Shown here piece by piece: positions 1 through 14,363 of a stretch of 64,000 bases of DNA. Both the position numbers and the translations under genes were made by a program. The stretch is from an uncultured Pseudomonadota bacterium. Lineage in GTDB: Bacteria; Desulfobacterota; Binatia; Binatales; Binataceae. The notes under the pieces were generated by a model. That model was given only the letters and a program-made list of their open reading frames with translations. It did no database searches and was not told the DNA's origin. The stretch covers positions 67,575 to 131,574 of the forward strand of contig CAWGQB010000020.1 in NCBI GenBank assembly GCA_963824565.1, read 5' to 3'. How positions within the stretch are numbered: the stretch's first letter is position 1; every line of letters starts with the position of its first letter.

Positions 1-6
1 AAACCG

Positions 7-425
7 TTAACCCTGATTTGCTGGACGAAACATTGGCAAGGTCACTTCATCATCAAGCTTCTCAAACGATACCTTTACCGGCATTCCGCATTTGATTTCA
101 TGCGGGCTGATTCCAATCACATTGGAAAGCATCTTGGCGCCTTCCTTAAGCTTGACCATCGCCACTGCATAAGGCACCTGGGTGGCGAATGCCGGGATGG
201 TAGACCCGATGCATGACGATGAAACTATAGACCTCGCCCTCCCCGCTTACCGGGGTCCAGGAAGCCTCACGCGACAGGCAGTTGGAACACATCCGGCGCG
301 GTGGAAACCGTAAGCGTCCCGCAACTGTCGCACTTTTGCACGACCAGTTGTCCCTGCTTGCTGGCTTCAAAAAATGGCTGTAACTCTGGTGTTATTTGCG
401 GTATCGGTCTTATTACTTCTGCCAT
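7..425 (-). CDS. Zn-ribbon/OB-fold protein (DUF35, ChsH2 C-terminal-like); frameshifted in this assembly
   Basis: Stitched across frames: MAEVIRPIPQITPELQPFFEASKQGQLVVQKCDSCG..RFPPRRMCSNC...GEGEVYSFIVMHR...VPYAVAMVKLKEG...; CxxC..CxxC ribbon plus OB-fold; downstream of the thiolase-like gene. Confidence 0.8.
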
Positions 426-520
426 CTGGCATATCTCCCGACCCGATCACGCCGCTCGTTTGAACCCTCTTCCGCCAGCGGCACGCCAGGTCAAATACTG
501 ATGTTGATGTGAAGCGTCTC

Positions 521-1689
521 TTATGGCGCGGTGCCGAGAACCAGGGTGGAGTGGGTCGACAGGATGCCACCGTTGCCGGAAACCAGACACAGGTCGTGCT
601 TGGGAACCTGACGCTTTCCGCCTTCACCGCGCACCTGGATGACGCCCTCCGACAGCGGCGTCATGCCCCACATATAGTACGAACTTAGTTGACCGCCGCC
701 GGTATTTACCGGAATCGAGCCACCAGGGCCAATCCGGCCGTCGGCTACAAAAGGGCCGCCTTCGCCCTTGGCACAAAAGCCATAGTCTTCCAGGGTCACC
801 AGCACCGTGATGGTATAGCAATCATAAAACTCGGCTACATTGATGTCCTTCAAATTCGACCCCGGCCATCTTGAACGCGACCTGCTTGGCCATCGGAGCG
901 CCCGACGCCAGGGTGTCGACCGGATCGCCGCCGGGATGGCCTTGGCCCATGCCCAGGATGTAGACCGGCGGCTTTTTCATATCGCGGGCGCGGTCGGCGG
1001 CGGTGACGATCACGCATACGGCGCCGTTGCTAACCAGGCAACAGTCAAAAAGATGCAACGGCTCGGCGACCCATCGCGAGTTATGGTAATCTTCGATTGT
1101 CAATGGCACGTCGTGGAACTCGGCGATGGGATTAAGGTTCGCCCACTTCCGTTCGGCCAGTGCAATCGCGCCAAGTTGATCGTGGGTGGTGCCGTAAATA
1201 TACATATGACGCTGCGCGACCATCGCGTAGCCGGAATTGGCGCCGAACAGTCCATAGGAGGCATCCAGACCCGCGAGCAAAGCCATACGCGGCGCCACCG
1301 CCGCCACCTTTCGCGTTGGGTTTGGGCGGCTTCAAGGGAGCGTCGGCGAAAATGCAAGCCACGGTGTTTGCCAGTCCCGCATCGATCGCCATCGCGGCAT
1401 GCATCACGATACCGGCCGCGCTGGCGCCGCCAAGGTTGGTGGTTGCGGTCAACCGGATGTCCTTGATCCCCATGACCTGTTGCACGGTGTACGAGGCCAT
1501 CAGATCGCTGCCCCAGGTTAGGCCAGGATTGACCAGAATGCCGTCCAGGTCAGAGCGGCTCAGTCCCGCGTCTTTCAAGGCCAATTCAATCGCCTCGACG
1601 GCGAAACCTACGGCATTCGGATGGTCGAAGTTCTTGCCCATCCTGGTGATACCCAAGCCAGCGATAGCGGTCTTTCCCCGCAGACTCAT
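521..1689 (-). CDS. Thiolase-family protein (SCP2/Ltp2-type, probable aldolase); two frameshifts
   Basis: MSLRGKTAIAGLG start; DCCLVSNGA, AEFYDCYT and NTGGGQLS motifs spread over ORFs 1132-1854, 822-1307 and 521-853; no catalytic Cys at the LGGASAA position. Confidence 0.85.
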
Positions 1690-2040
1690 GGCGTTCCTCC
1701 TGCGTCGACAGTTCAAGGCCAAGTCATAATCGACGGCAGGATCATAGTCCAACCCGGCGCCAACGGCAAAAATTAACAGCCGGCGTGACAGGCGTGGCGT
1801 GAGCCCGCGCCGCCGCATCCGCGCCATTGCGACTTGCGGGCACCTGTGGCACATGTTCCCTTCTGTCCTGATACTTCGTAGAATATTGCCACAATTGCCG
1901 ATGGATTCCCGAATTAGACAGTGTTCCGGCCGTTGCCGGAACGTTAATATGAATATGCCGGTGCGCTATGGGCGGCCGGCTGGCCGGGTAAATTGCGGTC
2001 AAATGCCGCTTAAGCTTAATCTGTTGAAAGAGGTTTCTAA

Positions 2041-3322
2041 ATGGCGCAGCCGCTGACATTTCAGGCATTGCCAAGCCGCGAGTACGTTCTATCCAGCGCG
2101 GAAAACTTCGTCCTCTATGTTCTCCTAGAGGCGATTGCTCAAGGCGGCGCGGGAGCGCGTCTGCCGCTTAATCTGGGCGTCGTGCTGGATCGCTCCGGCT
2201 CGATGTACGACGAGCGCCGGCTCGAATTTGTGATCGAGGCGGTCAAATTCCTGATCGACAATCTCAGTCCCGAGGACAAAGTCACTATCGTCGCCTTCGC
2301 CGACAAGGCGCAGGTGCTGACCTCCGGCGCCGCGAGCGATAGGGCCGGCGCCAAGCGTGCCATCGATGACATCGACCTGTTGGAGATCGGCGGGGGCACG
2401 CAGATGGCGCTGGGGATGCGCGCCGCTATCGATGAGGTCCGGAAGAATCTCACGCCGCAACGGCTCAACCGCGTGCTGGTGCTGACCGACGGCCAAACCT
2501 ACGAGGAGATGGCCTGCGTGGATCTCATCCGTCAGAACCCCGACATCCAGTTCTCCGCCATGGGCGTGGGCGTGGAGTTCAACGAGAAGCTGCTGATGCG
2601 GATTTCGCAGGACTCCGGCGGCAAATATCACTTCATTGGCGATTCCACCGAGATCCCCTCGATTTTCGAGGACGAATTGACGGGTCTGCGCGCGGTCGCA
2701 ATCCGCAATGGCCGCATCGATCTGGTGCTGTCGCAGGGCGTGCAAATCCGCGAAGGCTTCCGGGCCAGCCCGGAGATCTACGCCCTGGGTGAGCCGCTGG
2801 TTGGAGAAGACCGCAAAATCAGCTATCAGATCGGCGACCTCGAAGCGGGCGTTCCGGCTTCCGTGTTGATCACCCTGGTGCTGCCGCCGCGCAAGGCAGG
2901 AGCGGTGCGCATCGCACAAACCAGCTTCCATTACCAGATTCCGGGTTCAGCCGAGCAATCGGTCGGGCTTGACGTGACCGTCGACTACACCCTGGATCGG
3001 ACCCTGACCAGCAAAGTCAACGGCCGGGTGATGAATCTGGTCGACCAGGTGTCGATCGCCAAGCTGCAAAACAAGGCGGAAGAGGAGCTCAAAGCGGGTA
3101 ACGTCGATCGCGCCACCCGTCTGCTGACCAACGCCATTCAGGGCACGCAACGGCTGGGTAACATCAAGGCTACCCAAGCTTTGAGCGGCCTGATGGACCA
3201 GATTCAGCAGACCCAAAACCTCGGCAGCAAGGCCGCGAAGACCCAGACTGCTCAACGCGCAGGCGGTGGTGCGCAAGACTCAGATGCTCGACCCGGATAT
3301 GTTGAAAGAGATAAAGGAATGA
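2041..3322 (+). CDS. von Willebrand factor A domain protein with Ig-like and helical C-terminal region
   Basis: Intact MIDAS: DRSGSM, GGT, LTDG. A probable +1 indel near 3244 gives the end ...KTRLLNAQAVVRKTQMLDPDMLKEIKE* (TGA 3320-3322). Confidence 0.85.
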
Positions 3323-3397
3323 ACCATATCCTAAACCACCGCAAGGGCGACCGCGCGCAGCGGGCCGCCAACCAGAGGCGAGAGGTTAAGAGGCAAG

Positions 3398-4075
3398 ATG
3401 ATTAAGTGCAACGAATGCGGCTACGAAAACATGGACGGGCTAGACTACTGCGATAGCTGCGGGATCAAGCTTAATCAGGGGGCTGCGTCCCCCGAAGCGG
3501 CTCCTGCCGCTGCACCAGACGCGCCGACCGGTGCTATTGGCGCTCCTCCCAATCCTCCCGAATCAGGCCCGGCGCAGGCCTCTGCGGGGGTTGAACCGCA
3601 GGTCGCGCCAGAGCCGGCCGCGCCGCGAGAGCCAGCCTTTGTCCAGGAGGCCGTCATCCAACCCGCGCCGTCGCCGCGGCTCCAGAACCGCCCGCAGCAG
3701 CCACTCCGCAGCCTGCCGCGGCCATGCCCCCTGCTTTCAAAGCCAAGCTGAAAATCGTGCGAGGCGGGCGTCAGGGACAGGAATTTCCGCTGGAGGGAGG
3801 CAACAACCTGGTCGGTCGATGGGACCCCGAGACCGGATCATTTCCGGAGGTCGATCTCGAAGCCGACGATCCTGAAGCCAAGATCTCGCGCAAGCATGCG
3901 TTGATCCGGATCGACGGTCAGCAAGATCACCGTCGAAGATATCGGCAGCCTTAACGGTACCTACGTAAATCGCCAGCCGCGGCTGGCCCCGGGCGCCCCG
4001 CATGACCTTAAGGACGGAGACGAGATTATCATCGGCAAAACGTTCTTCAAGGTGGTGATCGAGCCGGTTTCCTGA
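3398..4075 (+). CDS. Double Zn-ribbon - Pro/Ala linker - FHA domain protein; frameshifted
   Basis: CNECG..CDSCG at the N-terminus; FHA motifs GR, ISRKH and [11 protein letters not shown] across three frames; stop TGA 4073-4075. Confidence 0.85.
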
Positions 4076-4148
4076 AGCGTTGGTGAGTAGCGGGAGCAGT
4101 TTACAGTTTTTGGACGACTCCCGTGGCAGTGTCAGCAGGATATTTCAG

Positions 4149-5686
4149 ATGAAAACCGGCGATCCGCTTCCGACCGGCCATGAACTCGACGGCCGATATC
4201 GAGTCGGCAAAATCATCGGGGTCGGCGGCATGGGACGGGTTTACATGGCCAACGATACGCGTCTGGCCAACCGTCCGGTCGCGGTCAAAGAGATGTTGGT
4301 CGGGGAGGGGCTTCACGAGCAAAAGGCAGTAGAGGATTTCGCCCGCGAGGCACGAGTTCTGGCCCCGCTCTCCCATCCTGGCATTCCCAATCTGATCGAC
4401 TATTTCGCCGAGCGCGGCCGCCATTACCTGGTGATGGAATACATCGCGGGCGGCGACCTGCAGGGATGGCTGGACGAGCGCGGCGCGGGCGCACGCGTGC
4501 CCGAGCAACAGGTGATGCGCTGGGCGCGCGAGATCCTTGACGTGTTGTGCTTCCTCCACGTCCAGAACCCACCGATTGTTTATCGCGACCTCAAGCCCGG
4601 AAACATCATGATCGATCAGCACGGGCGCGCGATGATCATCGATTTCGGCATCGCGCGCTTTCTCCCGCCCGGCGGACGCGGAACCCAGATCGGTTCGGTC
4701 GGTTATGCCCCGCCGGAGCAATACCTGGGCAAGCTGGAGCCGAGGTCGGATCTCTACTCACTGGGCGCCACAATGCACCATCTGCTGACCGGGCGCGACC
4801 CTCAGCTTGAACCCCCGTTCAGCTTTCCGCCGGTACGGCAACTTGCGCCCGAGGTCTCGGCGGAGGTCGAGCGCGTCGTGATGTGGGCCTTGGAACGCGA
4901 CGCGGAGAAGCGGCCGCAATCAGCCGTGGCGATGCTCCAGGCGCTGCCGCGCGCGGCGACTGAGGGCGACCCCTGGATTGCGCAGAACTCGGGGGGCGAA
5001 CCAGCGGCCTCATCACTGTCGATGATGCGGACCCAAGTGCTGACCAAACCTGGCCCGGCACCGACGGCGCAGAATACACTTCGAATCCACTCGACCAGCG
5101 CGCGCGCCAGCCCCGGTTACTTCGGGCATTTCACCCACCGCGAAGACCGCGGACTTAAGGGGCAAGCGTCAAATCCGCCGCCACCCCCAGGCCGGTCCCA
5201 CGGCCCGCGCCGCCACCGGTGCGAGTTACGCCGCCATCGGCACCGGTCCCAGCGCGTCCCATTGTCCAAGCTCGGTCCGCAGCGCCGGTAGCAAGCCCCT
5301 CGCGACCCGCAAGCCCTGCGCCGCGCAACGGAGCGGCCCCGGTTGCGGCCGCAGTCAGCGCCACCGAGCAGGCCAGCCTGGTCTCCAAGACTGAGGCGAT
5401 GCGCTTCGGTATCCGGGCTGTTAAAATGACGATTGGACGCCATCTCGAACCGGCTGACCAAATCGATATTGACCTGGGTGTGCTCAAAATCGGCGGCGAC
5501 CGTGTGTCCCGCCGTCATGCCGAAATCATCAAACGCGGTGAGGATTATTTCATTCGCGACCTCGGCAGCCTCAACGGCACGTTCATTCTCGGTCAGGGAC
5601 GGCTCGGCCGCGACCAACTCTACAAATTGCGCGACCGCGATCAGGTGGTAATCGGCGGCACCACATTGGAGTTCCGAAGAGGCTGA
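4149..5686 (+). CDS. Hanks-type Ser/Thr protein kinase with C-terminal FHA domain; frameshift in the linker
   Basis: GVGGMG, VAVKE, YRDLKPGN, DFG, APPE. ORF 5219-5686 has FHA motifs IGR, VSRRH and SLNGT; the Pro-rich linker runs across the frame change. Confidence 0.85.
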
Positions 5687-5691
5687 AAAGC

Positions 5692-7851
5692 ATGATCACG
5701 TGTCCGGATTGCGGGCAGAAGTCTCCCGACGAAGCGCGATTTTGCGAACAGTGCGGGCGCGGCTTGCACGATGCGCCGCCGCCGGCCGCAGCACTGCCGC
5801 CGCTCGCCGTCGGCAGCCAATTGCAGGGCCGTTTCAAGCTGGTCGAGGTGATTAGCCAGAACTCGCAGGAAAATCGCTATCGCGCGGTTGCCTTGGACGA
5901 CGAGGCGAAGCGGTTCGTGCTCCGCGAACGACTGGCACCGGTTCCTGAGCAAGAGGAGGCGGCAGCGGAGAGGAACGACGCCGCGGCGGCTTCAGAAGAG
6001 AACCCGGCGGGTCCCTTGGCGAAGACCCGTGACCTCGCGCCGCTTGCGCGCGCAGCATTGGCGCACCACGAGGCGAGCACAGATGCGACCGCCGCCGATA
6101 CTGGAGAGCCGGATGGCGGTTCATTTCAAGAGCTGCAGGCTGAGTCCGCGCAGACGCCGCATGCGGCGCAAGATGCGCCTCCTCAGCCCGAAGCTCAATC
6201 AGTCGGCGAAGCCCAAACGGTCGGCGAAGCCCAATCGATTAATGGTCATCTGCAAGCGGATGAAGCGCAACTCTCGGTCGCGGCGGCGTCTGAAGCGGGC
6301 GACGAGACTCAGGCGGCAGAAGCCGATGAAGGGGCATTGGGAAACGGCGACGCCGAAACCCCGTCTGCGCCGCCACGATCCGACTTGGGCGAGATATTCG
6401 AGCGGGTCCTGGCGCTTTCGCGTACGATCGGCCATCCGGCATACTTTCCCGCCCAGGATGGCTTTGCCGAAGACGGTCGCGTCTATTTGGTCTACGCCGA
6501 CGAGCTGCTTAAGCCGTTTACCTCCAAAAGGCGGGGTTCGATCGAGATGCCCGAGCATGAAGCCCTAAGCGTCGCGATCCAAATCTGCCAGGCGGTTTCG
6601 TATCTGCATAACCGCGGCATGCGGGTTAACGATATCTGCCCCGCCTCGCTCGCCTACGGCGCCGACGGACGAATCAAGCTGACCAGCCTCGACTACATCA
6701 GCAACGACAACGAGTTGCAGTCTGATCCGATCCTTAACGACGGCTACACCGCGCCCGAGATCTATCGCGGCAAGAGCGTGGATAAGCGGGCCGATGTCTT
6801 TTCGATCGGCTGCCTGCTGTATACCTGTCTGACCGGCGAACGAATCGAATGTGAGACCTGGCGCGAGGAGGCCACCCCGATCCGGTTCTATCCGCCACAC
6901 GTAATTTCCCCTGACCTGGAGCGGGTGCTGCGCGGGGCCCTGGGCTTCAAGCCGGTCGCCCGCTGGCCGGGCGCCGAACAGTTCAAGGCCGAACTGCTCA
7001 AGCTGAACTCGCGCCTTGAGATCCGTTCGAGCTGTCTGACCGACGTGGGAATCGTGCGCGAGGCCAACGAAGACTCAATAATGGCGCTGGAGTTTATGCA
7101 GGATTCCCAGATCGCGCCCGGACGCCATTATCTTTATGTTGTATCCGACGGGATGGGTGGTGCGGAAGCGGGAGAAACCGCCAGCGCGATTGCCGTCGAA
7201 ACGATACAGGATTATGTTGAGCAAGGGGTTTCTAAACTCAGTGTTAGCCCTCATGCTCAAACCGCTGGCGCACCGGAAACCTCGGCGGCCGTCAATGCCG
7301 CGCCTGGTCAGTCTGCTGGTACACTTGAGCAGATCCTTCAAGCCGCCTTGGAAGAAGCCAACCGCAAAATCGTCGAGCACCAAGTGGACCATCCGGAACG
7401 TCGCGGCATGGGAGCAACAGCTGTGGGTGCGTTGATTGCGCCGCCGGACGCCGTCGTTGCCTGGGTGGGAGACAGCCGTGCCTACTTGCTGGAAGGCGGA
7501 CGGCTGCGCCTACTGACCAAAGATCATTCATTGGTGCAGCGATTGGTCGAGGTCGGACAGATTACCGCCGAAGAAGCGCGCAACCACGAGCACAAGAACG
7601 TGATTACGCGCTCGCTGGGTGCCCGCACCAATGGTCCGGCCGGAGCTGAAGTATTGAAGCTGAGGCTCAAGCGCGGCGATCGCCTGATGCTTTGTAGTGA
7701 TGGATTAATCGCTCATGTGGAGGATTCCGCGATTGCGGAGATCCTGGCCCGCCGGGAGGATCCGGCCGAGGCGGGCCGCGAATTGGTGGTGGCGGCCAAT
7801 GCCGGTGGTGGAACCGATAACATCTCTGTGATTGTCATAGACGCCCAATAG
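5692..7851 (+). CDS. Zn-ribbon - degenerate kinase - PP2C/PPM Ser/Thr phosphatase fusion
   Basis: CPDC..CEQC; kinase C-lobe GYTAPE and ADVFSIG but with VNDICPAS and no DFG; intact PP2C motifs REANED, SDGMGG, GDSRAY, TRSLG, CSDGL, DNIS. Confidence 0.9.
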   Translation: MITCPDCGQKSPDEARFCEQCGRGLHDAPPPAAALPPLAVGSQLQGRFKLVEVISQNSQENRYRAVALDDEAKRFVLRERLAPVPEQEEAAAERNDAAAASEENPAGPLAKTRDLAPLARAALAHHEASTDATAADTGEPDGGSFQELQAESAQTPHAAQDAPPQPEAQSVGEAQTVGEAQSINGHLQADEAQLSVAAASEAGDETQAAEADEGALGNGDAETPSAPPRSDLGEIFERVLALSRTIGHPAYFPAQDGFAEDGRVYLVYADELLKPFTSKRRGSIEMPEHEALSVAIQICQAVSYLHNRGMRVNDICPASLAYGADGRIKLTSLDYISNDNELQSDPILNDGYTAPEIYRGKSVDKRADVFSIGCLLYTCLTGERIECETWREEATPIRFYPPHVISPDLERVLRGALGFKPVARWPGAEQFKAELLKLNSRLEIRSSCLTDVGIVREANEDSIMALEFMQDSQIAPGRHYLYVVSDGMGGAEAGETASAIAVETIQDYVEQGVSKLSVSPHAQTAGAPETSAAVNAAPGQSAGTLEQILQAALEEANRKIVEHQVDHPERRGMGATAVGALIAPPDAVVAWVGDSRAYLLEGGRLRLLTKDHSLVQRLVEVGQITAEEARNHEHKNVITRSLGARTNGPAGAEVLKLRLKRGDRLMLCSDGLIAHVEDSAIAEILARREDPAEAGRELVVAANAGGGTDNISVIVIDAQ
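6190..6237 (+). repeat. 18-bp in-frame tandem repeat (~2.7 copies; EAQSVG EAQTVG EAQS)
   Basis: gaagctcaatcagtcggc gaagcccaaacggtcggc gaagcccaatcg inside the acidic linker. Confidence 0.7.
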
Positions 7852-7854
7852 CCC

Positions 7855-10215
7855 ATGGCCAATCCCGCACAGGACGGAGCCGATACCGGACCATTACCGG
7901 GCGGGACCCTGCTCCAGAATCGCTATCTGATACAAAAGCTGATCGGCGGAGGCGGCATGGGAGTGGTCTACCTGGCGCAGGACCAGCGCCTGGCCAACCG
8001 CTCGTGCGCGCTCAAAGAGATGGTCGATCATTTCATCGACCCCCAGCAGCGCCGCGAGGCCAACGAATATTTCGCCCGCGAAGCCGACACCCTGGCCCAA
8101 CTGCGCCATCCCGCGATCCCCGGGATCAGCGACCGCTTCGACCATGCCAATCGCCATTACCTGGTGATGGAATACGTCGAGGGTCGTAACCTCGAGGAGG
8201 AAATGGCTGCGCTCGGCCATCCGCTGGACGAGGGACTGGCCATCGATATTGCCCGGCAGTTGTGCGAGGTGCTCTCCTATCTGCACAACTTCACACCGCC
8301 GATCGTTTACCGCGACATGAAGCCCTCCAACGTGATGCTCACGCCCAAGGGCAAAGTGATGCTGATCGATTTCGGCATCGCGCGCCTGTTCAAGGTGGCG
8401 AGCAAAGGCACTATGATCGGCACGCTGGGCTTCGCGCCGCCCGAACAGTACCAGGGGCTGGTCGATCCGCGCAGCGACATCTACTCGCTGGGAGCAACGC
8501 TCCACTACGTCCTGACCGGCCGCGACCCCGAGAAGTTTCCGCCCTTCAGCTTCCCGCCCGTCGGCTCGTTGCGCGCCGACCTTTCTCAAAACCTCGCCGG
8601 AGCAATCGACCGGGCGCTGAGCTACACCCCCGAAGGCAGGCCGCAAACCGTCAACGAATTCCGGGACATGATGCTCTATGGGACGGGCCTGACCACGGCT
8701 CCGCTCAGTGTCAACCCCAAGAGCGGAACGGCGGATCTGAGTCAGGTCACCGTGCTGATCGCGCCACCGGCACGCAAGCCGCGAAGCGGATTGCGCCGGG
8801 CGATGGGATTTCTGATCTTCACGCTGTTCCTCGGCTCGTTGGCCTTCGGTGCGACGTACATCTACTCCAATCCGGAACTGCAAACCCAGCTTGGGATCAA
8901 GGCCCTGATTGATGGGCTGCCATGGAAACATCAGGAACTGGTCGATAAGGCGCGCGAGCATCCGCTGGAGTTTCAACGGGTAACGCTGCAGCTCTCGACG
9001 CGCGAAGGCAGTCCGCTCTCCGCGCCGAAGGCCAGGTTCCTCAATACCGAATTGTCCGGCAACCCTTATCTGGCTTGGGTGGCGAGCTTTAAGAACAGCT
9101 TGGCGGGTCTGGAAGGAAGTAGCGAAAAGGTGGTGGCGAAATTCTTTGACCCTAACGGTCTGCAAATTGCCTCCAGCGACAGCTCACGTTTTATCGGACC
9201 GGCATCGAAACAGGTCGACTTCAGCGGCGTGGCGTTGATCCCCAATTTGAGCGACCATCCGCTTGGCAATTATAGGGTGGAACTGTTCTCAGGCGACCAG
9301 CAACTGGCCGCGCAACAGTTCTCCGTGGACCAGGATGTCACCGCCGAACTCAAGGAAAAGGCGGAGAAGGAGGCGGAGGCGGCCCGCGCGCTGGCGGCCG
9401 AGGAGGAACGCAAGGCTGCAGTCGAGAAGCTGGCTAAGATTGAAGAATTTCGGCGCCGTCCGCTCCAACTGCTCTCGATCGAATTTCAGAACACGACTAA
9501 AAGCGGGACCCCGATCTCCGGCGCCACCCAGACCTTCGACGCGGCCAAGGTGTTGTTCGTGGGTTGGCAGGTCAATTTCAAAAACCGTCTGTTCGGCCTC
9601 GATATGAACCAATATCGGGTCGATGCCGCCTACATCGCTCCTGATGGGCATACCTTGGGCAGCGTCGATGATTATCGGATGGTCTCCGATAAAGCGAAAA
9701 CCGCTGTCTTCACTGGCAGAATCGGCAATTCTTCGGGCAATGCCTTCCTGCCTGGCCTGTACGCCGTGAACTTCTACCTCAACGGGCAGTACCTGGCCCA
9801 GCGCAGATTCCGCGTCGTGTCGGTTACCGCCAGCCTCAATCCCAGCATCGGACTGCCTCCTGCCTCCTCTTCCACTTCTTCGGGACTGATGGGGGCGGCG
9901 CTACCCAACCTGGATAGTCCAACCGTGGCCAGTGGCAGAATCGACGGCTTGGCCGGTAAAGACAATGTGCCGATGGAGATCAGGCTGCGCCCGCAGCCCA
10001 ATGGGTTTCTCCATGGCGAACTGGTGATTCATGAGCCCGGCTATGGACTTACTCCGATCGACGGTTTCGTTCGCGGAAGTCACATTGAATTTCAGGTCCC
10101 CTATGGCAGCAGAGTCCTGTATTTCGAGGGCCAGCGCCGCCGTGAGCAAATGAGCGGCAGCTTCCAGTCGGAGCCTGCCGGTGAACGAGGGAATTGGAGC
10201 GCGCGGGTGGACTGA
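7855..10215 (+). CDS. Transmembrane Ser/Thr kinase with two repeated beta-rich extracytoplasmic domains
   Basis: GGGGMG, ALKE, YRDMKPSN, DFG, APPE; TM helix AMGFLIFTLFLGSLAFGATYIY; two ~120-aa internal repeats separated by an E/A/K-rich coiled coil. Confidence 0.9.
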   Translation: MANPAQDGADTGPLPGGTLLQNRYLIQKLIGGGGMGVVYLAQDQRLANRSCALKEMVDHFIDPQQRREANEYFAREADTLAQLRHPAIPGISDRFDHANRHYLVMEYVEGRNLEEEMAALGHPLDEGLAIDIARQLCEVLSYLHNFTPPIVYRDMKPSNVMLTPKGKVMLIDFGIARLFKVASKGTMIGTLGFAPPEQYQGLVDPRSDIYSLGATLHYVLTGRDPEKFPPFSFPPVGSLRADLSQNLAGAIDRALSYTPEGRPQTVNEFRDMMLYGTGLTTAPLSVNPKSGTADLSQVTVLIAPPARKPRSGLRRAMGFLIFTLFLGSLAFGATYIYSNPELQTQLGIKALIDGLPWKHQELVDKAREHPLEFQRVTLQLSTREGSPLSAPKARFLNTELSGNPYLAWVASFKNSLAGLEGSSEKVVAKFFDPNGLQIASSDSSRFIGPASKQVDFSGVALIPNLSDHPLGNYRVELFSGDQQLAAQQFSVDQDVTAELKEKAEKEAEAARALAAEEERKAAVEKLAKIEEFRRRPLQLLSIEFQNTTKSGTPISGATQTFDAAKVLFVGWQVNFKNRLFGLDMNQYRVDAAYIAPDGHTLGSVDDYRMVSDKAKTAVFTGRIGNSSGNAFLPGLYAVNFYLNGQYLAQRRFRVVSVTASLNPSIGLPPASSSTSSGLMGAALPNLDSPTVASGRIDGLAGKDNVPMEIRLRPQPNGFLHGELVIHEPGYGLTPIDGFVRGSHIEFQVPYGSRVLYFEGQRRREQMSGSFQSEPAGERGNWSARVD

Positions 10216-10307
10216 ACCCTTGCCGTTTCTCCGGCGCTTGGTCATCCTGAACTGGAAATGGAGCGGGAGCGCGGTGCGCTGACCGATTGCCCCGATTTTT
10301 CTCGACG

Positions 10308-11180
10308 ATGGCGATTAACGTATCACGCGAAAAGCTGCTCTTTTATGCTGTCGCGGGTGGCCTGGGCGGGCTGGCCGCATGGGCCGCCGCCGAACCCTTC
10401 CTCGGTATCCGCCAGGTCTACGTCCGGGACGCGTTACTGGGTGCTCTTATCGGCTTGTTCATCGGCGCATTCCTGGCCTCAATCGAGGCGCTGAGCGTGG
10501 GCCAATGGCGTCAGGCGTTACGTGGAGTCCAGGCCGGCGGATTGATCGGTGCGATTGGCGGCGCGGTCGGCTTGCTGGTTGGTGAGATTGGCTTCGACAT
10601 CCTTGGTGGACTCTATGGCCGGGTCGTCGGATGGGCGATCCTCGGCATCGCGGTCGGCTTGGGTATCGGCACGGCGGCACGCTCGGGTGCCCGCCAGCGC
10701 AACGGCGCCTTGGGAGGCATCGTGGGCGGCGCTTTGGGCGGCTTCGTCTACTGGGCCCTGACTCTGGCGTTTCCCCAGGCTTTCGGACGTGCGATTGCGA
10801 TCATAGTACTCGGCGCATTGATCGGATTCTTCATCGGACTGGTGACCGAGCTACTCAAGCGCGGATCGCTGATGGTGGTGCGCAGCGGCAGCCGCAACGC
10901 CCGCGAGGGGCGGGAATTCGCACTGGCCAAACCGGTTACGGTAATCGGGCGGGCGGAAGAGAGCGACGTCGGTCTTTTTGGCGATCAGTCGGTGCTGCCC
11001 CAGCACGCGATACTCCGCCGGGAGGGTAAGAGTTTTTACGTCAGCACCACCGCCGGCGGCGCGGTCAGCGTTAACCGGACTCCGGTCAATGGACGCCAAC
11101 TGCTCAAAAACGGCGATCGTATCGAAGTTGGCGGAACCCTGTTTCTGTTCCGCGAGCGAAACCAGACCCCGGGGAGCTAG
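10308..11180 (+). CDS. Multi-pass Gly-rich membrane protein with C-terminal (degenerate) FHA domain
   Basis: About 6 GxxxG-rich hydrophobic helices, then VIGRAEESDVGLFGD..QHAIL..LKNGDRIEVGG. Confidence 0.85.
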   Translation: MAINVSREKLLFYAVAGGLGGLAAWAAAEPFLGIRQVYVRDALLGALIGLFIGAFLASIEALSVGQWRQALRGVQAGGLIGAIGGAVGLLVGEIGFDILGGLYGRVVGWAILGIAVGLGIGTAARSGARQRNGALGGIVGGALGGFVYWALTLAFPQAFGRAIAIIVLGALIGFFIGLVTELLKRGSLMVVRSGSRNAREGREFALAKPVTVIGRAEESDVGLFGDQSVLPQHAILRREGKSFYVSTTAGGAVSVNRTPVNGRQLLKNGDRIEVGGTLFLFRERNQTPGS

Positions 11181-11335
11181 CAGGCCGTCGAAAACAAGAC
11201 TTTCACCATCTGCCCCAGCGCTCTTGACAAAAGAGCCGAACATTTTCAGGCAAAGCGTTGAAAGCAGCATTAATCCCAAGAGACTTGGACCGGTCTGTGT
11301 CGGCATTCCTGCCCAGCGGGTGCACGCCTCAATGC

Positions 11336-12067
11336 ATGGGCAGTTTCGGACGCCTGTTGGCAATCGGCGCTATCGTTAGCCTTCTGGCGGGCTGCTCCAC
11401 GGTAGATACCACCTCCAATCTTGCGCCAGCCTCGAATCAGACTTTGGAATTCTACCCGGGGCTGGTAAAAGGCTTTGAACACACTTATCCGTCCCGCCAT
11501 CTGATCGTGCTGGCGGTCACGGATGCTTGCGAAACCAAGAATCAAGGCTCCAGCGGCGATGGCCAGCAGATTGGAACGACGGTGGACACGCGGGGTGAGA
11601 CGATCCAGAACCTTTACACCACCGGCCTGGCTGGCATCGTTCAGAACGCACTCGTGCAGGCCGCGCAGGAGGCCGGCATGACCTCAATCGCTTCAAGCCA
11701 GTCGCGGTACGCGGCGCGACCGGTCGACGCCGATTACGTGCTGGAAAGCAAGGTGGTGAAATGCTGGGTAAAGAAGCAGCGTGTCGTTGACAACGAGAAA
11801 AACGGCAGTTGGCAGACGCAAGCGGAATTCGCAATCGACGCGACAATTTACAAGCCGCCTTTTCAGGTGCCGTTCTGGCAAGGTGACAGCAGCGAAACTT
11901 ACAGTGACCCCCCCGACAATCCCGGCATGATGTCAGAGGATCAGGCCAGCATCTATGATCAGCCAGGCGAGGTCCTGTCGGTGGCCTTTACGCGTAGTGT
12001 CGAGGGCATCTTCAAGCGCGGCAATCTGCATTCCTTGATTGTCCAGGACCACGTGCTGCGCCGCTGA
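11336..12067 (+). CDS. Lipoprotein of unknown function
   Basis: MGSFGRLLAIGAIVSLLAG-C lipobox. Confidence 0.75.
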   Translation: MGSFGRLLAIGAIVSLLAGCSTVDTTSNLAPASNQTLEFYPGLVKGFEHTYPSRHLIVLAVTDACETKNQGSSGDGQQIGTTVDTRGETIQNLYTTGLAGIVQNALVQAAQEAGMTSIASSQSRYAARPVDADYVLESKVVKCWVKKQRVVDNEKNGSWQTQAEFAIDATIYKPPFQVPFWQGDSSETYSDPPDNPGMMSEDQASIYDQPGEVLSVAFTRSVEGIFKRGNLHSLIVQDHVLRR

Positions 12068-12148
12068 GCGGAACGCCGGAAAACCCGCGCCATAGGCCAA
12101 GGCCGGGCACGCCCTTCCGCCCGTCATTTGATACCACCTTTGGGTTGA

Positions 12149-13468
12149 TCAGGTCGCCGCGGCCGGGTTCTTGGGTGCGGATGCGCCCCGCACTGCCGCT
12201 TCCAGAAATGGCCGCGCCTGTGCGGTTATGTCGAGGGTTGGATCGAGTTTTTTGCCCAGACCTTCGACCACCACGAAGGAGATATTGAGTACGGTGAAGC
12301 GCCCGTCCATGCGCATCCGGTAGCGGCGGAAAATGTCGAAGAAGGAACCAATCGCCGACGCCATCTCGATTTCGCCCAGCGGCCGATTGGTATAGCGGCG
12401 CAAGTATTCGATCATCTCCGATTCATAAGTTGCGTAGTCGATCGGGCCCAGCCGCTGGCACAACTCGTACATGTGCCGGGCCAGTTCCCGGCCCATTCCG
12501 TTGGCCATGTAGTACATGGTCTGTGCGAACATCAGCCGATCCGTGGGCGTCAACTCGGTGATCAGCCCAAGGTCGAACAGGGCGATACGGTTACCGGGGA
12601 GAAAGCGGAGGTTACCGGGATGCAAGTCGGCGTGGACGAAGCCATCAATGAACGTCATCTTGCAAAAGACCTTGATGCCGAGCGCGGCCACCTGGCGCGG
12701 ATCGATTCCTGCCGCTTCAAGGCCGGTCTCGCGGACGCCTTCGAGCAAATCCATCGTGAGTACGCGCTCACTGCACAGCCGCTCGACGAGGCCCGGAAAG
12801 ACCACGTCGGGTTCGTTCTTGAAGTTGTCGCGGAAGCGGATGTTGTTGATGGCCTCGATGCGAAAATCGAGTTGCTTGTTTACCGCCGTACAGAACTGAT
12901 GCACGGCTGATACTGGTGAGAGCACGTGCAGGGTTGGAATCTCGCGCAACAAATGGGCAAAGCCCAGCGCGATCGATTGGTCGAGCTGGGCCCAAGCCGC
13001 GATTGCCGGACGGCGCACTTTTACCGCGACCCGCTGGCCTCCCGCAGCGATGCGGGCGCGATGGACCTGCGCGACCGAAGCCGCCGCCAGCGGATGGACC
13101 TCGAACTCGCTGAAGAGCCTTTCCAGGGGTGCCCCAAAGTCCTCTTCGATGATCCGGCGGACCTGTTCATAGGGAAATGGCCGGACCTCTTCCTGCAGCT
13201 TCACCAGTTGCTCGATGATTTCGGGCGGCACCAGGTCTGGCCGCGTGCTAGCCACCTGGCCAAGCTTGATAAAGGTGGCTCCGAGCCGTTCCAGCGCGAT
13301 GCGCAGCGCGCGGCCGCCGGCCGTGAGCGCGACCCTGCGGTCAAGCCGGCGCGAACGGATTGCTTCGACACCCAGGATACCGGCAAAGGCGACCGCCGCG
13401 TAGGTCCCCCAAGTCAGCATCTGCGCCGTCCGAACGACGATCTGGAGCGCTCCAACCAGACGTTTCAT
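12149..13468 (-). CDS. ABC1/UbiB (AarF) family atypical kinase
   Basis: FIKLGQ, AAASVAQVH, VAVKV, HADLHPGN and DLG motifs. Confidence 0.9.
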   Translation of the reverse strand: MKRLVGALQIVVRTAQMLTWGTYAAVAFAGILGVEAIRSRRLDRRVALTAGGRALRIALERLGATFIKLGQVASTRPDLVPPEIIEQLVKLQEEVRPFPYEQVRRIIEEDFGAPLERLFSEFEVHPLAAASVAQVHRARIAAGGQRVAVKVRRPAIAAWAQLDQSIALGFAHLLREIPTLHVLSPVSAVHQFCTAVNKQLDFRIEAINNIRFRDNFKNEPDVVFPGLVERLCSERVLTMDLLEGVRETGLEAAGIDPRQVAALGIKVFCKMTFIDGFVHADLHPGNLRFLPGNRIALFDLGLITELTPTDRLMFAQTMYYMANGMGRELARHMYELCQRLGPIDYATYESEMIEYLRRYTNRPLGEIEMASAIGSFFDIFRRYRMRMDGRFTVLNISFVVVEGLGKKLDPTLDITAQARPFLEAAVRGASAPKNPAAAT

Positions 13469-13568
13469 CTACTCTTCCGTTGCCTTGGCGGATGTTTTAG
13501 CATTCCGCGGCGATACCTGGTTATTGTGGCCCATTGAGCTTTAGACCGTACATACACAGAGGTTGGTC

Positions 13569-14363
13569 ATGGATTACAGCGAATATCGACATCTTACATT
13601 CAAACAGCATGACGACGGAGTCCTCCTGGTGACTCTGAACCGGCCCGAAGTCCTTAATGCCACCAACGCGCGGATGCATTGGGAACTGTCCCAGGTGTGG
13701 AAGGATATCGACCGGGACAGCCAAGCCAAGGTCGTCCTCGTTACCGGCGCCGGGCGGGCGTTTTCAGTCGGCGGTGACAACTCGATGCTGGCAGAGACGC
13801 TGGGAAACGCGGAGAAAATCGCCGGGCTGTGGCGGGAAGCGGGCGATATCGTCTACAATATGATCAACCTGGACAAGCCGATTATCTCCGCGATTAACGG
13901 GCCCGCCTTCGGCGCCGGATTGGCGGTGGCGCTGGTCGCCGATATCAGTATCGTGGCGGACAACGTCCGTTTCACCGACGGTCATGTGATCCTGGGCGTC
14001 GCGGCGGGCGATCATGCGGTGATCATCTGGCCGCTGCTTTGCGGGATGGCCAAGGCCAAGTACTACCTGCTGACCGGGGAGTTGCTCGACGGCAAGGAGG
14101 CGGAGCGCATCGGCTTGGTCAGCTTGTGCGTGGCACCGGAACAGCTAATGGGTAAGGCACTCGAGACGGCTCACAAGCTGGCGGCCGGTCCGCAACAGGC
14201 GCTGCGCTGGACCAAGCGATCGCTCAACAACTGGTTACGGATGGCTGGTCCCAGCTTCGACACGTCACTGGCCCTGGAGATGCTTGGATTCTTTTCCGCC
14301 GATGTCAAAGAGGGCAACGCCGCGCTCAAGGAGAAGCGGGCGCCCCATTTCACCACACGGTGA
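13569..14363 (+). CDS. Enoyl-CoA hydratase/isomerase (crotonase) family protein
   Basis: LNRPEVLNA, RAFSVGGD, INGPAFGAG, DGHVILGVAAGDH. Confidence 0.9.
   Translation: MDYSEYRHLTFKQHDDGVLLVTLNRPEVLNATNARMHWELSQVWKDIDRDSQAKVVLVTGAGRAFSVGGDNSMLAETLGNAEKIAGLWREAGDIVYNMINLDKPIISAINGPAFGAGLAVALVADISIVADNVRFTDGHVILGVAAGDHAVIIWPLLCGMAKAKYYLLTGELLDGKEAERIGLVSLCVAPEQLMGKALETAHKLAAGPQQALRWTKRSLNNWLRMAGPSFDTSLALEMLGFFSADVKEGNAALKEKRAPHFTTR

Follow-up and report, generated by a model that had tools for sequence, protein, structure and literature searches.

What kind of signalling system is encoded by the seven consecutive plus-strand genes at positions 2041–12067 of a 64,000-nucleotide stretch of DNA (hereafter the window) from an uncultured member of the Binataceae? 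As delineated by the open reading frame (ORF) listing and Pfam, the cluster consists of six genes, encoding a von Willebrand factor A (vWA) protein, a zinc ribbon (ZnR) protein with an FHA domain, a kinase-FHA fusion, a ZnR-pseudokinase-PP2C protein, a transmembrane (TM) kinase and a six-TM protein with an FHA-like domain, plus a lipoprotein gene. A first-pass annotation, made from the sequence alone, had read these genes as a self-contained phospho-threonine (pThr) circuit and assigned them to an uncharacterised envelope-sensing or defence system. The circuit itself is borne out: writers, eraser and readers are encoded side by side with a receptor kinase and a membrane component. The word 'uncharacterised', however, no longer applies, since the vWA/ZnR-FHA core turned out to be homologous, in both sequence and fold, to the studied ArnB/ArnA pair of archaea, and also matches operons of the Deinococcus DRA0331-0334 type and cyanobacterial genes of the FraH type. 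We therefore consider it probable that the locus represents a bacterial, operon-encoded version of the archaeal ArnA/ArnB pThr switch, that is, a known kind of system extended and expanded in the Binataceae. This reading is built on the folds, motifs and homology of the individual proteins, on conserved synteny and on the wide spread of the core module.

The vWA protein is an ArnB-like hub

The vWA protein, about 427 residues long, was modelled with 40 diverse homologues at high confidence (pLDDT 91, pTM 0.87). In the model, strands from residues 5-33 and 219-317 form a single β-sandwich around the vWA domain (residues 43-217), and this split sandwich is followed by a threonine-rich helical bundle (residues 328-413). 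The same tripartite organization, in which the split sandwich holds a vWA domain and is followed by a 'regulatory helical bundle', is described for ArnB in the available text of the ArnAB studies (PMC12852372, PMC6509490). The residues of the MIDAS (metal ion-dependent adhesion site), D50, S52, S54, T120 and D150, are invariant in alignments of both 7 and 40 sequences. Structure searches with Foldseek pointed in the same direction. The model matched a Catenulispora vWA protein (4fx5) with a query-normalized TM-score (TMq) of 0.74, chains A and B of the ArnAB complex (8s05) with TMq of 0.69-0.70 and a target-normalized score (TMt) of 0.76-0.77 over 421-426 columns, and the ArnB paralogue 5a8j with TMq of 0.62; matches to ITIH1, integrin β and Sec23/24 were far weaker. 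At the level of sequence, the profile of the hub family (alignment A3) retrieved 4fx5 (E 4.8e-37) and ArnB (E 3e-35) from the PDB, the latter in two stretches, which take in the bundle and its ATxxL motif; pairwise sequence identity to the ArnAB structure is only about 19%.

In ArnB, the bundle carries phosphosites. According to the same sources (PMC12852372, PMC6509490), ArnC/ArnD phosphorylate residues T343 and T353 (peptide RMELIETTRR), PP2A removes these phosphates, and the FHA domain of ArnA binds the bundle in its phosphorylated form. In the hub protein of the Binataceae, T378, T391, T401 and T413 of the bundle are invariant in 78 orthologues, T359 is nearly invariant across the wide hub family, and relatives have repeated KTxx[ILM] motifs in their tails. 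When ArnB and the hub are aligned through hidden Markov models (HMMs), T378 and T391 would approximately coincide with the two ArnB phosphosites.

The putative partner of the hub is of ArnA type

The gene next to the hub gene encodes the ZnR-FHA protein, in which a CxxC-x10-CxxC zinc ribbon and a Pro/Ala-rich linker precede a canonical FHA domain with GR, SRKH and NG motifs. Its zinc ligands (C4, C7, C18 and C21) and the signature residues of the FHA domain (R136, S159, R160, H162 and N181) are invariant in alignment A5. Pfam recognizes FHA and, weakly, DZR in the orthologue from G004, the closest relative (82% nucleotide identity), and the ZnR-FHA profile matches ArnA (5a8i) with E 1.8e-16. 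In terms of position, the agreement is complete: a protein with ribbon, linker and canonical FHA domain is encoded directly after the vWA gene in 76 of 76 Binataceae loci (these and the following synteny counts are based on the 80 best loci, each gene being counted only where the flank was long enough). In ArnA, the zinc finger (C21, C24, C35, C38) is described as contacting both sandwich and bundle of unphosphorylated ArnB in the available portions of the reports (PMC12852372, PMC6509490). Complex prediction for the vWA and ZnR-FHA proteins gave scores of 0.08 and 0.12 against a mark of 0.32; having been run without controls, it weighs neither way.

Writers, eraser and membrane components

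Two complete kinases are encoded in the cluster, and both retain the Gly loop, the β3 Lys, the catalytic Asp and DFG as judged by reading the sequences. The first is a cytoplasmic Hanks-type kinase, which a Pro/Ala linker joins to a canonical FHA domain (GR, SRxH, NG); in G004, a single ORF encodes both domains. The second, the TM kinase, has a cytoplasmic kinase domain, one TM helix (approximately residues 316-334) and a periplasmic C-terminal part. The first-pass annotation had noticed that this ectodomain is repetitive, and its structural model (pLDDT 85) agrees, featuring two Ig-like β-sandwiches, a joining helix of 40 residues and an eight-stranded avidin-like barrel. The sandwiches are similar to the FnIII domains of RbmA and to macroglobulin (MG) domains in Foldseek, which also matched the ectodomain to transglutaminase domains, and to carbohydrate-binding sandwiches of GH2 and Wzt in VIA-align (Z 10-11); the barrel (residues 351-449) resembles shwanavidin (Z 11.7, rmsd 2.0, 90 residues aligned by VIA-align). 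Such folds are common, and likeness of a modelled fold does not give a ligand. Short WD40-like stretches that appeared when the ectodomain profile was compared with the PDB did not pass and were treated as spurious.

The putative eraser combines a zinc ribbon of the same CxxC-x10-CxxC spacing as in the reader, a pseudokinase and a PP2C domain. In an alignment of 65 sequences, the pseudokinase has no Gly loop and no conserved β3 Lys, HRDLKxxN is replaced by VNDICPAS and DFG by LDY, in full agreement with the original pseudokinase call, and the metal-binding motifs of the PP2C domain are intact. The latter domain scores 227.9 bits with the Stp1-type NCBIfam model, against a cut-off of 230. The long acidic insert of the pseudokinase is otherwise unconserved and contains one conserved motif, NPxGPxAKTRDL (residues 103-115), which, having Thr with Leu at +3, could be a docking site for an FHA domain.

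The six-TM protein is rich in glycine and has six hydrophobic segments, an invariant motif of the GSRNAREGRE type after the last TM helix and a cytoplasmic C-terminal FHA-like domain. The cluster had been credited with three FHA proteins, of which two are canonical and this third one is degenerate: in 51 of 58 orthologues Leu occupies the position of the pThr-contacting Ser of SxxH, so it is gene position that ties this protein to the switch. In ESM Atlas, the six-TM part retrieved clusters of its own lineage and weak leads only. The lipoprotein has no match in Pfam, NCBIfam or PADLOC; in ESM Atlas it retrieved Binatota clusters only, with weak leads to LptE/Lipoprotein_16. A second, more distant paralogue of the six-TM FHA protein occurs in Binataceae away from the cluster (for example, G010:C1:667340-668254 and G017:C26:491409-491972), with 37% identity and open frames of 429-465 residues.

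The actinobacterial FhaA/FhaB-PstP-PknA/PknB cluster has a comparable inventory, with two kinases, a single PP2C and a pair of FHA proteins of which one is membrane-bound, so that the locus might be thought of as a growth or division controller to which the vWA protein is accessory. NCBIfam indeed detects weak similarity to FhaB/FipA and to PknB-type kinases, but the scores (20-42 bits against a cut-off of 125 for FhaB, NF049868; 189-212 bits against 450 for PknB_PASTA, NF033483) fall far short of the family thresholds. There are no PASTA repeats and no rodA/pbpA alongside, and the vWA protein, far from being accessory, is the best-conserved and most widespread member of the cluster. We therefore regard a division controller as very unlikely.

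The cluster is a core gene set of Binataceae

The 80 best loci come from metagenome-assembled genomes (MAGs) of Candidatus Binataceae, Binatus and Binatia from soil, peat and sediment. A close match to the vWA gene (71-95% identity) is present in all 24 genomes of the family, a tally that takes in the unpublished genome G022; in three of them the gene is split over contig ends. Outside the family, the gene was found in one of 16 other genomes of the class (G039, 59% identity). Besides the invariable ZnR-FHA neighbour, the kinase-FHA gene is in its conserved position in 74/74 loci, the ZnR-pseudokinase-PP2C gene in 71/71 and the TM kinase gene in 67/68, whereas the six-TM FHA and lipoprotein genes are in position in 58/66; G010 is among the eight exceptions, its six-TM FHA gene being located about 9 kb farther along. 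Conserved synteny, the obvious check on the first-pass annotation, is thus confirmed, with the gene order kept in nearly all loci. The flanks behave differently, varying by genus: an ABC1 kinase and an enoyl-CoA hydratase are found here and an α-2-macroglobulin (>1420 residues) in G004. As flanking genes differ while the order within the cluster holds, the unit is self-contained and core to the lineage; it is a core gene set of Binataceae.

The locus of G039 (L015), outside the family, has neither the kinase-FHA nor the lipoprotein gene. In the same locus, the six-TM FHA gene is followed by a gene for a 537-residue vWA-FHA fusion (L015:9528-11141; Pfam VWA_4 and FHA). Distant vWA matches elsewhere in the class (G025, G035 and G037) have no adjoining kinase, FHA or PP2C genes.

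This distribution bears directly on the idea of anti-phage defence. A vWA protein, a PP2C and a Ser/Thr kinase are the domain triad of TerY-P, and the kinases of the cluster score high on the PADLOC models for the PD-T4-6, MAD6 and MkoA kinases. However, these matches span only the generic kinase domain, PADLOC finds nothing for the vWA (at E ≤ 0.01), ZnR, FHA, six-TM FHA or lipoprotein sequence, and Pfam vWA-TerF-like (PF10138) gives 23.8-26.5 bits, below its cut-off of 29.4. Moreover, presence in 24 of 24 family genomes in a fixed order is unlike the patchy occurrence of defence islands, and the flanks contain no mobile or defence genes. The defence half of the original proposal is therefore not supported, and we consider immunity of the TerY-P kind highly improbable. 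More generally, domain content alone is insufficient to count such clusters as TerY-P-like immunity.

The other system that the domain content brings to mind is the type VI secretion system (T6SS), for which gating by kinase/PP2C/FHA modules is established. The locus could accordingly encode a regulator of a secretion or surface machine (PpkA/PppA/Fha1-T6SS or a YscD-type FHA protein) or, by analogy with ArnAB, of a type IV pilus-like apparatus, and the best match of the six-TM FHA domain is Yop-YscD_cpl. Nevertheless, no genes for T6SS or other secretion systems adjoin the cluster (pilus genes were not searched for), the T6SS sheath protein VipB (PF05943) was not found in this genome, which is 84% complete, the TagH model TIGR03354 gives 38 bits against a cut-off of 120, and the flanks change from genus to genus. 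As the first-pass annotation had anticipated, neither a TerY-P system nor a T6SS regulatory module matches the cluster gene for gene, and we find regulation of such a machine quite unlikely.

Layout of the locus and interrupted frames

The coordinates of the genes are collected in Table 1. That the six genes are co-oriented and followed by a lipoprotein gene was correctly perceived at first, and positions, strand and gaps (3 to ~92 bp between cluster genes after frame correction) all agree. What had gone unseen is that three of the genes are interrupted by frameshifts. The kinase-FHA gene likely starts at ATG 4149, the listed ORF opening at TTG 4080. A scan for promoters and terminators yielded fewer sites than in shuffled controls.

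Table 1. Genes of the cluster and its downstream flank, with positions in the window
Feature	Position	Strand	Basis or remark
ArnB-like vWA hub	2041-3405 (ORF as assembled)	+	Pfam VWA_2/VWA_3
ZnR-FHA reader, ArnA/FraH-like	3398-4075	+	Zinc ribbon ORF 3398-3751, FHA in two further frame segments
ZnR-FHA frame segments	3398 to ~3675; ~3676-3917; 3919-4075	+	Three-frame translation
Kinase-FHA	4149-5686	+	Pfam hits on the two pieces: Pkinase, E 7e-41; FHA, E 4e-15
Kinase-FHA pieces	Hanks kinase 4080/4149-5291; FHA 5219-5686 (other frame)	+	
ZnR-pseudokinase-PP2C, 719 aa	5692-7851	+	Pfam, NCBIfam
Receptor Hanks kinase (TM kinase), 786 aa	7855-10215	+	Pfam, hydropathy
Six-TM FHA-like protein, 297 aa	10287-11180	+	Pfam Yop-YscD_cpl E 9e-11, FHA E 2e-8
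Lipoprotein	11258-12067	+	Lipobox LLAGC; likely start ATG 11336
ABC1/UbiB-type atypical kinase (downstream)	12149-13468	-	Pfam E 2e-58
Enoyl-CoA hydratase (downstream)	13563-14363	+	E 2e-49

Single-base frame breaks at four sites affect the vWA, ZnR-FHA and kinase-FHA genes of this assembly. According to three-frame translation and tblastn, the vWA gene has an extra base near 3244, beyond which the ORF runs on as a foreign tail up to 3405; in the corrected frame the stop codon is at 3320-3322 and the protein ends in ...RKTQMLDPDMLKEIKE. The ZnR-FHA gene is one base short after 3675 and has one surplus base at 3918, and tblastn mapping with the intact G004 proteins places a single shift of the kinase-FHA gene within 5195-5291. 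Alignment of the DNA to G004 likewise reveals one-base differences at ~3244, 3654-3702 and 3918 and in the Pro/Ala-coding linker (5078-5274).

Should these breaks be real mutations, the locus would be a decaying array of pseudogenes in this particular genome, and four disruptions in three neighbouring genes are what one would then expect; at 3244 and 5195-5291, moreover, there is no read evidence either way. The relatives tell a different story. In six of them inspected gene by gene, the vWA (427-461 residues), ZnR-FHA (192-234 residues) and kinase-FHA genes are each one unbroken ORF where present, the last (501-583 residues) being found in five of the six and absent from the sixth, that of G039. 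A check on the reads comes from short-read Logan contigs of soil metagenomes (four runs, two studies) mapped over 3000-5700: a G is added after 3675 in all three runs covering that site (X1, X3 and X4), and X1, the sole run covering 3918, has one base fewer there. Together, the two changes restore one ZnR-FHA frame. With 92-99% likeness to the assembly, the contigs stem from this population or a sister one, though the strain may differ. Furthermore, the residues encoded outside the breaks are 80-95% identical to those of G004.

Frame problems are also not confined to the cluster. Upstream of it (1-2040), one-base indels relative to G004 occur at 193, 315, 854, 1273, 1708 and 1722, and a thiolase-like gene on the minus strand (1132-1854) is apparently split between frames, suggestive of indel errors throughout this assembly. 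Similar frame changes are seen in several MAGs of the MFD series, as would befit error-prone assembly; judging from their large contigs, these MAGs appear to be long-read assemblies. Taken together, the intact relatives, the read contigs that repair ZnR-FHA, the indels outside the cluster and the frame changes in the MFD series make it very probable that the breaks were caused by assembly error, and decay of the array is correspondingly unlikely.

The core module is widespread beyond Binataceae

A search with the hub profile at E ≤ 1e-30 retrieved 681 cluster representatives. Many have a length of 410-430 residues and are matched from end to end; the few named ones are from Armatimonadota and Anaerolineae. 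In annotated records, tblastn found full-length hub homologues in Deinococcus (4) and in Trichormus, Tolypothrix and Microchaete (5), with 28-29% identity across 95% of the query for Deinococcus and 25% identity for Trichormus. Neighbouring genes were inspected in three of the nine plasmid records with at least 80% coverage. In both D. radiodurans and Deinococcus sp. QL22, the order is vWA, Ser/Thr kinase (STK), ZnR/FHA and long PP2C, and on plasmid B of Trichormus the vWA gene is followed directly by ZnR-FHA and PP2C. The relationship extends to the eraser, residues 286-717 of the Binataceae PP2C protein, pseudokinase C-lobe included, aligning to the long PP2C of D. radiodurans with 30% identity (E 4e-32). 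The 35.8 kb plasmid B of Trichormus variabilis (L103, positions 1-13078) has three vWA genes, and an ARC6/PARC6-family gene and a serine hydrolase gene lie just upstream of the vWA, ZnR-FHA and PP2C trio.

The same association is apparent in metagenomic DNA. We considered 48 loci with a near-full-length match to the hub in a narrower alignment (A4), leaving out two Binataceae-like loci, and called the neighbours with HMMs built from our own alignments. FHA is encoded within 2.5 kb downstream of vWA in 22 of the 28 loci with enough flank, and a PP2C gene ends less than 400 bp upstream of vWA in 18 of 34. Thirteen loci have flanks of 4 kb or more on either side; of these, nine have a kinase, and FHA, PP2C and kinase occur together in eight. 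For 25 weaker vWA matches in the same scan, the corresponding numbers drop to 2/11 for FHA, 1/18 for PP2C and 0/4 for all three. On a per-ORF count, fusions of the zinc ribbon to FHA occur in 30 loci and to PP2C in 15; there are also fusions with kinases, as ZnR-kinase in six loci and kinase-ZnR in four, two sets that may overlap. Even the N-terminal TM domain of the six-TM protein is found beside distant vWA homologues (L107, L128, L129, L152 and L153). Distant reader homologues in metagenomic loci such as L135, L114, L119 and L123 have two to six zinc ribbons ahead of the FHA domain, and in some loci two or three PP2C genes and two kinase genes surround a single vWA gene.

A model of the switch

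By analogy with ArnAB, the two Hanks kinases would phosphorylate the conserved threonines in the C-terminal bundle of the hub, and the reader would bind the hub loosely, by its zinc ribbon, until these threonines are phosphorylated, and tightly, by its FHA domain, thereafter. The ZnR-pseudokinase-PP2C protein would reset the switch, and its own zinc ribbon may dock at the site used by the reader. Since the zinc ribbon recurs on reader, eraser and writer, we infer that it might serve as a common docking tag for the hub. The kinase-FHA fusion is suggestive of priming or feedback and the receptor kinase of an extracytoplasmic cue. The TM kinase may plausibly sense the envelope. The six-TM FHA-like protein and the lipoprotein would place the action of the module at a membrane and may tie it to the envelope. 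As output, the most likely candidate is that the MIDAS-bearing hub changes its state of assembly or its binding of clients at the membrane, which would be a housekeeping signal for the envelope or membrane organization, not immunity.

Several observations weigh against equating the locus with ArnA/ArnB. By HMM alignment, T378 and T391 can be matched to the ArnB phosphosites with a precision of only about two positions, and Pfam assigns no family to the C-terminal bundle of the hub. The six-TM FHA domain lacks the pThr-contacting Ser in the great majority of its orthologues, and its gene is missing from its position in 8 of 66 loci. Two of the four break sites, 3244 and 5195-5291, are without read cover at ≥92% likeness. 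The phosphatase is a PP2C (PPM family), whereas Sulfolobus uses PP2A (PPP family), and the output of ArnAB, repression of the archaellum, cannot apply in this bacterium. Finally, phosphorylation, binding and phenotype are predictions for a cluster of an uncultured organism. The different phosphatase and the bacterial host indicate a bacterial variant of the switch, not a member of the arn network.

A broader and rather doubtful possibility is that the ArnB-like hub together with its zinc-ribbon reader, eraser and writer constitutes one ancient, prokaryote-wide module, of which ArnAB, FraH, DRA0331-0334 and the Binataceae cluster are all representatives. In such a module, the ribbon might be a shared address tag, with FHA adaptor, PP2C and kinase competing for one groove of the hub; in Binataceae, the module might have been wired to a periplasmic sensor of glycans or small ligands and to the six-TM partner. 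Its output could then be membrane remodelling or cargo selection instead of transcription, an output made conceivable by the Sec23/24-like fold of the hub and the role of FraH in intracellular membranes.

Comparison with known systems

Full-text searching, which leaves most subscription journals outside its coverage, brought up no paper in which ArnAB, FraH and the Deinococcus operon are connected, nor one on the Binataceae cluster; one preprint alludes to the archaeal design. The systems have been presented separately. In the accessible parts of the respective sources, ArnA/ArnB appears as a regulator of archaeal motility (PMC12852372, PMC6509490), FraH as a factor for filaments and membranes in cyanobacteria and DRA0331-0334 as a stress operon of Deinococcus (10.64898/2026.01.23.701218).

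The TerY-P triad also encodes a vWA protein with a PP2C and a Hanks kinase. The Binataceae cluster differs from it in the ArnB-type sandwich and bundle of its ~427-residue hub, in having FHA readers as integral parts and in its core distribution. A more remote structural parallel is offered by the Sec23/Sec24 core, which likewise combines a zinc finger, a vWA-like trunk, a split β-barrel and a helical domain, and to which the hub is matched by Foldseek with E 1e-12 to 1e-11 and TMq of 0.43-0.53. The same parallel is drawn by the authors of the ArnAB structure in the available text of their paper. In Binataceae, however, the ribbon resides on a separate protein and there is no gelsolin domain; the likeness is one of fold only.

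Cyanobacterial FraH has the architecture of the reader, a zinc ribbon, a Pro-rich linker and FHA, and vWA homologues are present in the Trichormus, Tolypothrix and Microchaete records. Unlike the reader, Anabaena fraH has been studied as a stand-alone gene, one that affects the reorganization of heterocyst membranes. Proteins pulled down with FraH include a kinase, a phosphatase and Alr4359, a 'hypothetical' protein phosphorylated on Thr (pT362, pT410) (PMC9035410). The positions of the Alr4359 phosphosites and a C-terminal KT motif deduced from the primers would fit a member of the hub family. Its termini, deduced from the printed primers, had no match among 277 and then 397 proteins, and a search with the Trichormus hub homologue returned only proteins of 433-643 residues, nearly all of 442-467.

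DRA0331-0334 of Deinococcus comes close in composition, with a full-length homologue of the hub (28% identity over 95% of the query), an STK, a ZnR+FHA protein and a long PP2C in which the region ahead of the phosphatase domain aligns to the C-lobe of the Binataceae pseudokinase. It has four genes in another order and one kinase with C-terminal TM helices, and is without the kinase-FHA fusion, receptor ectodomain, six-TM FHA protein and lipoprotein. As reported in the available text of the preprint (10.64898/2026.01.23.701218), the operon displays Mn-dependent phosphatase activity and antagonism of FHA protein and phosphatase on kinases, the FHA protein is termed an orthologue of FraH, and the experiments leave the vWA protein aside. 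The same text assigns a KI-FHA domain to the region ahead of PP2C, where Pfam finds no FHA.

The closest counterpart in terms of the core is ArnA/ArnB of Sulfolobus acidocaldarius (8s05, 5a8i, 5a8j). In both systems a ZnR-FHA gene adjoins a vWA gene, the hub combines a tripartite fold with MIDAS and a Thr-rich bundle, the ribbon has CxxC-x10-CxxC spacing, and control is exerted by Hanks-type kinases and a Ser/Thr phosphatase. The Binataceae system is distinct in being bacterial and without an archaellum, in having its kinases and phosphatase in the same operon and in its additional components, namely the kinase-FHA fusion, receptor kinase, six-TM FHA protein and lipoprotein. The conservation of a complete operon, kinases and phosphatase included, suggests a single, widespread pThr switch around an ArnB-fold hub. 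It also leads to testable predictions, both of the target threonines and of the zinc ribbon as a docking element common to reader, eraser and sometimes writer, and offers a first way into the function of a core signalling system in the Binataceae, an abundant lineage of uncultured soil bacteria.

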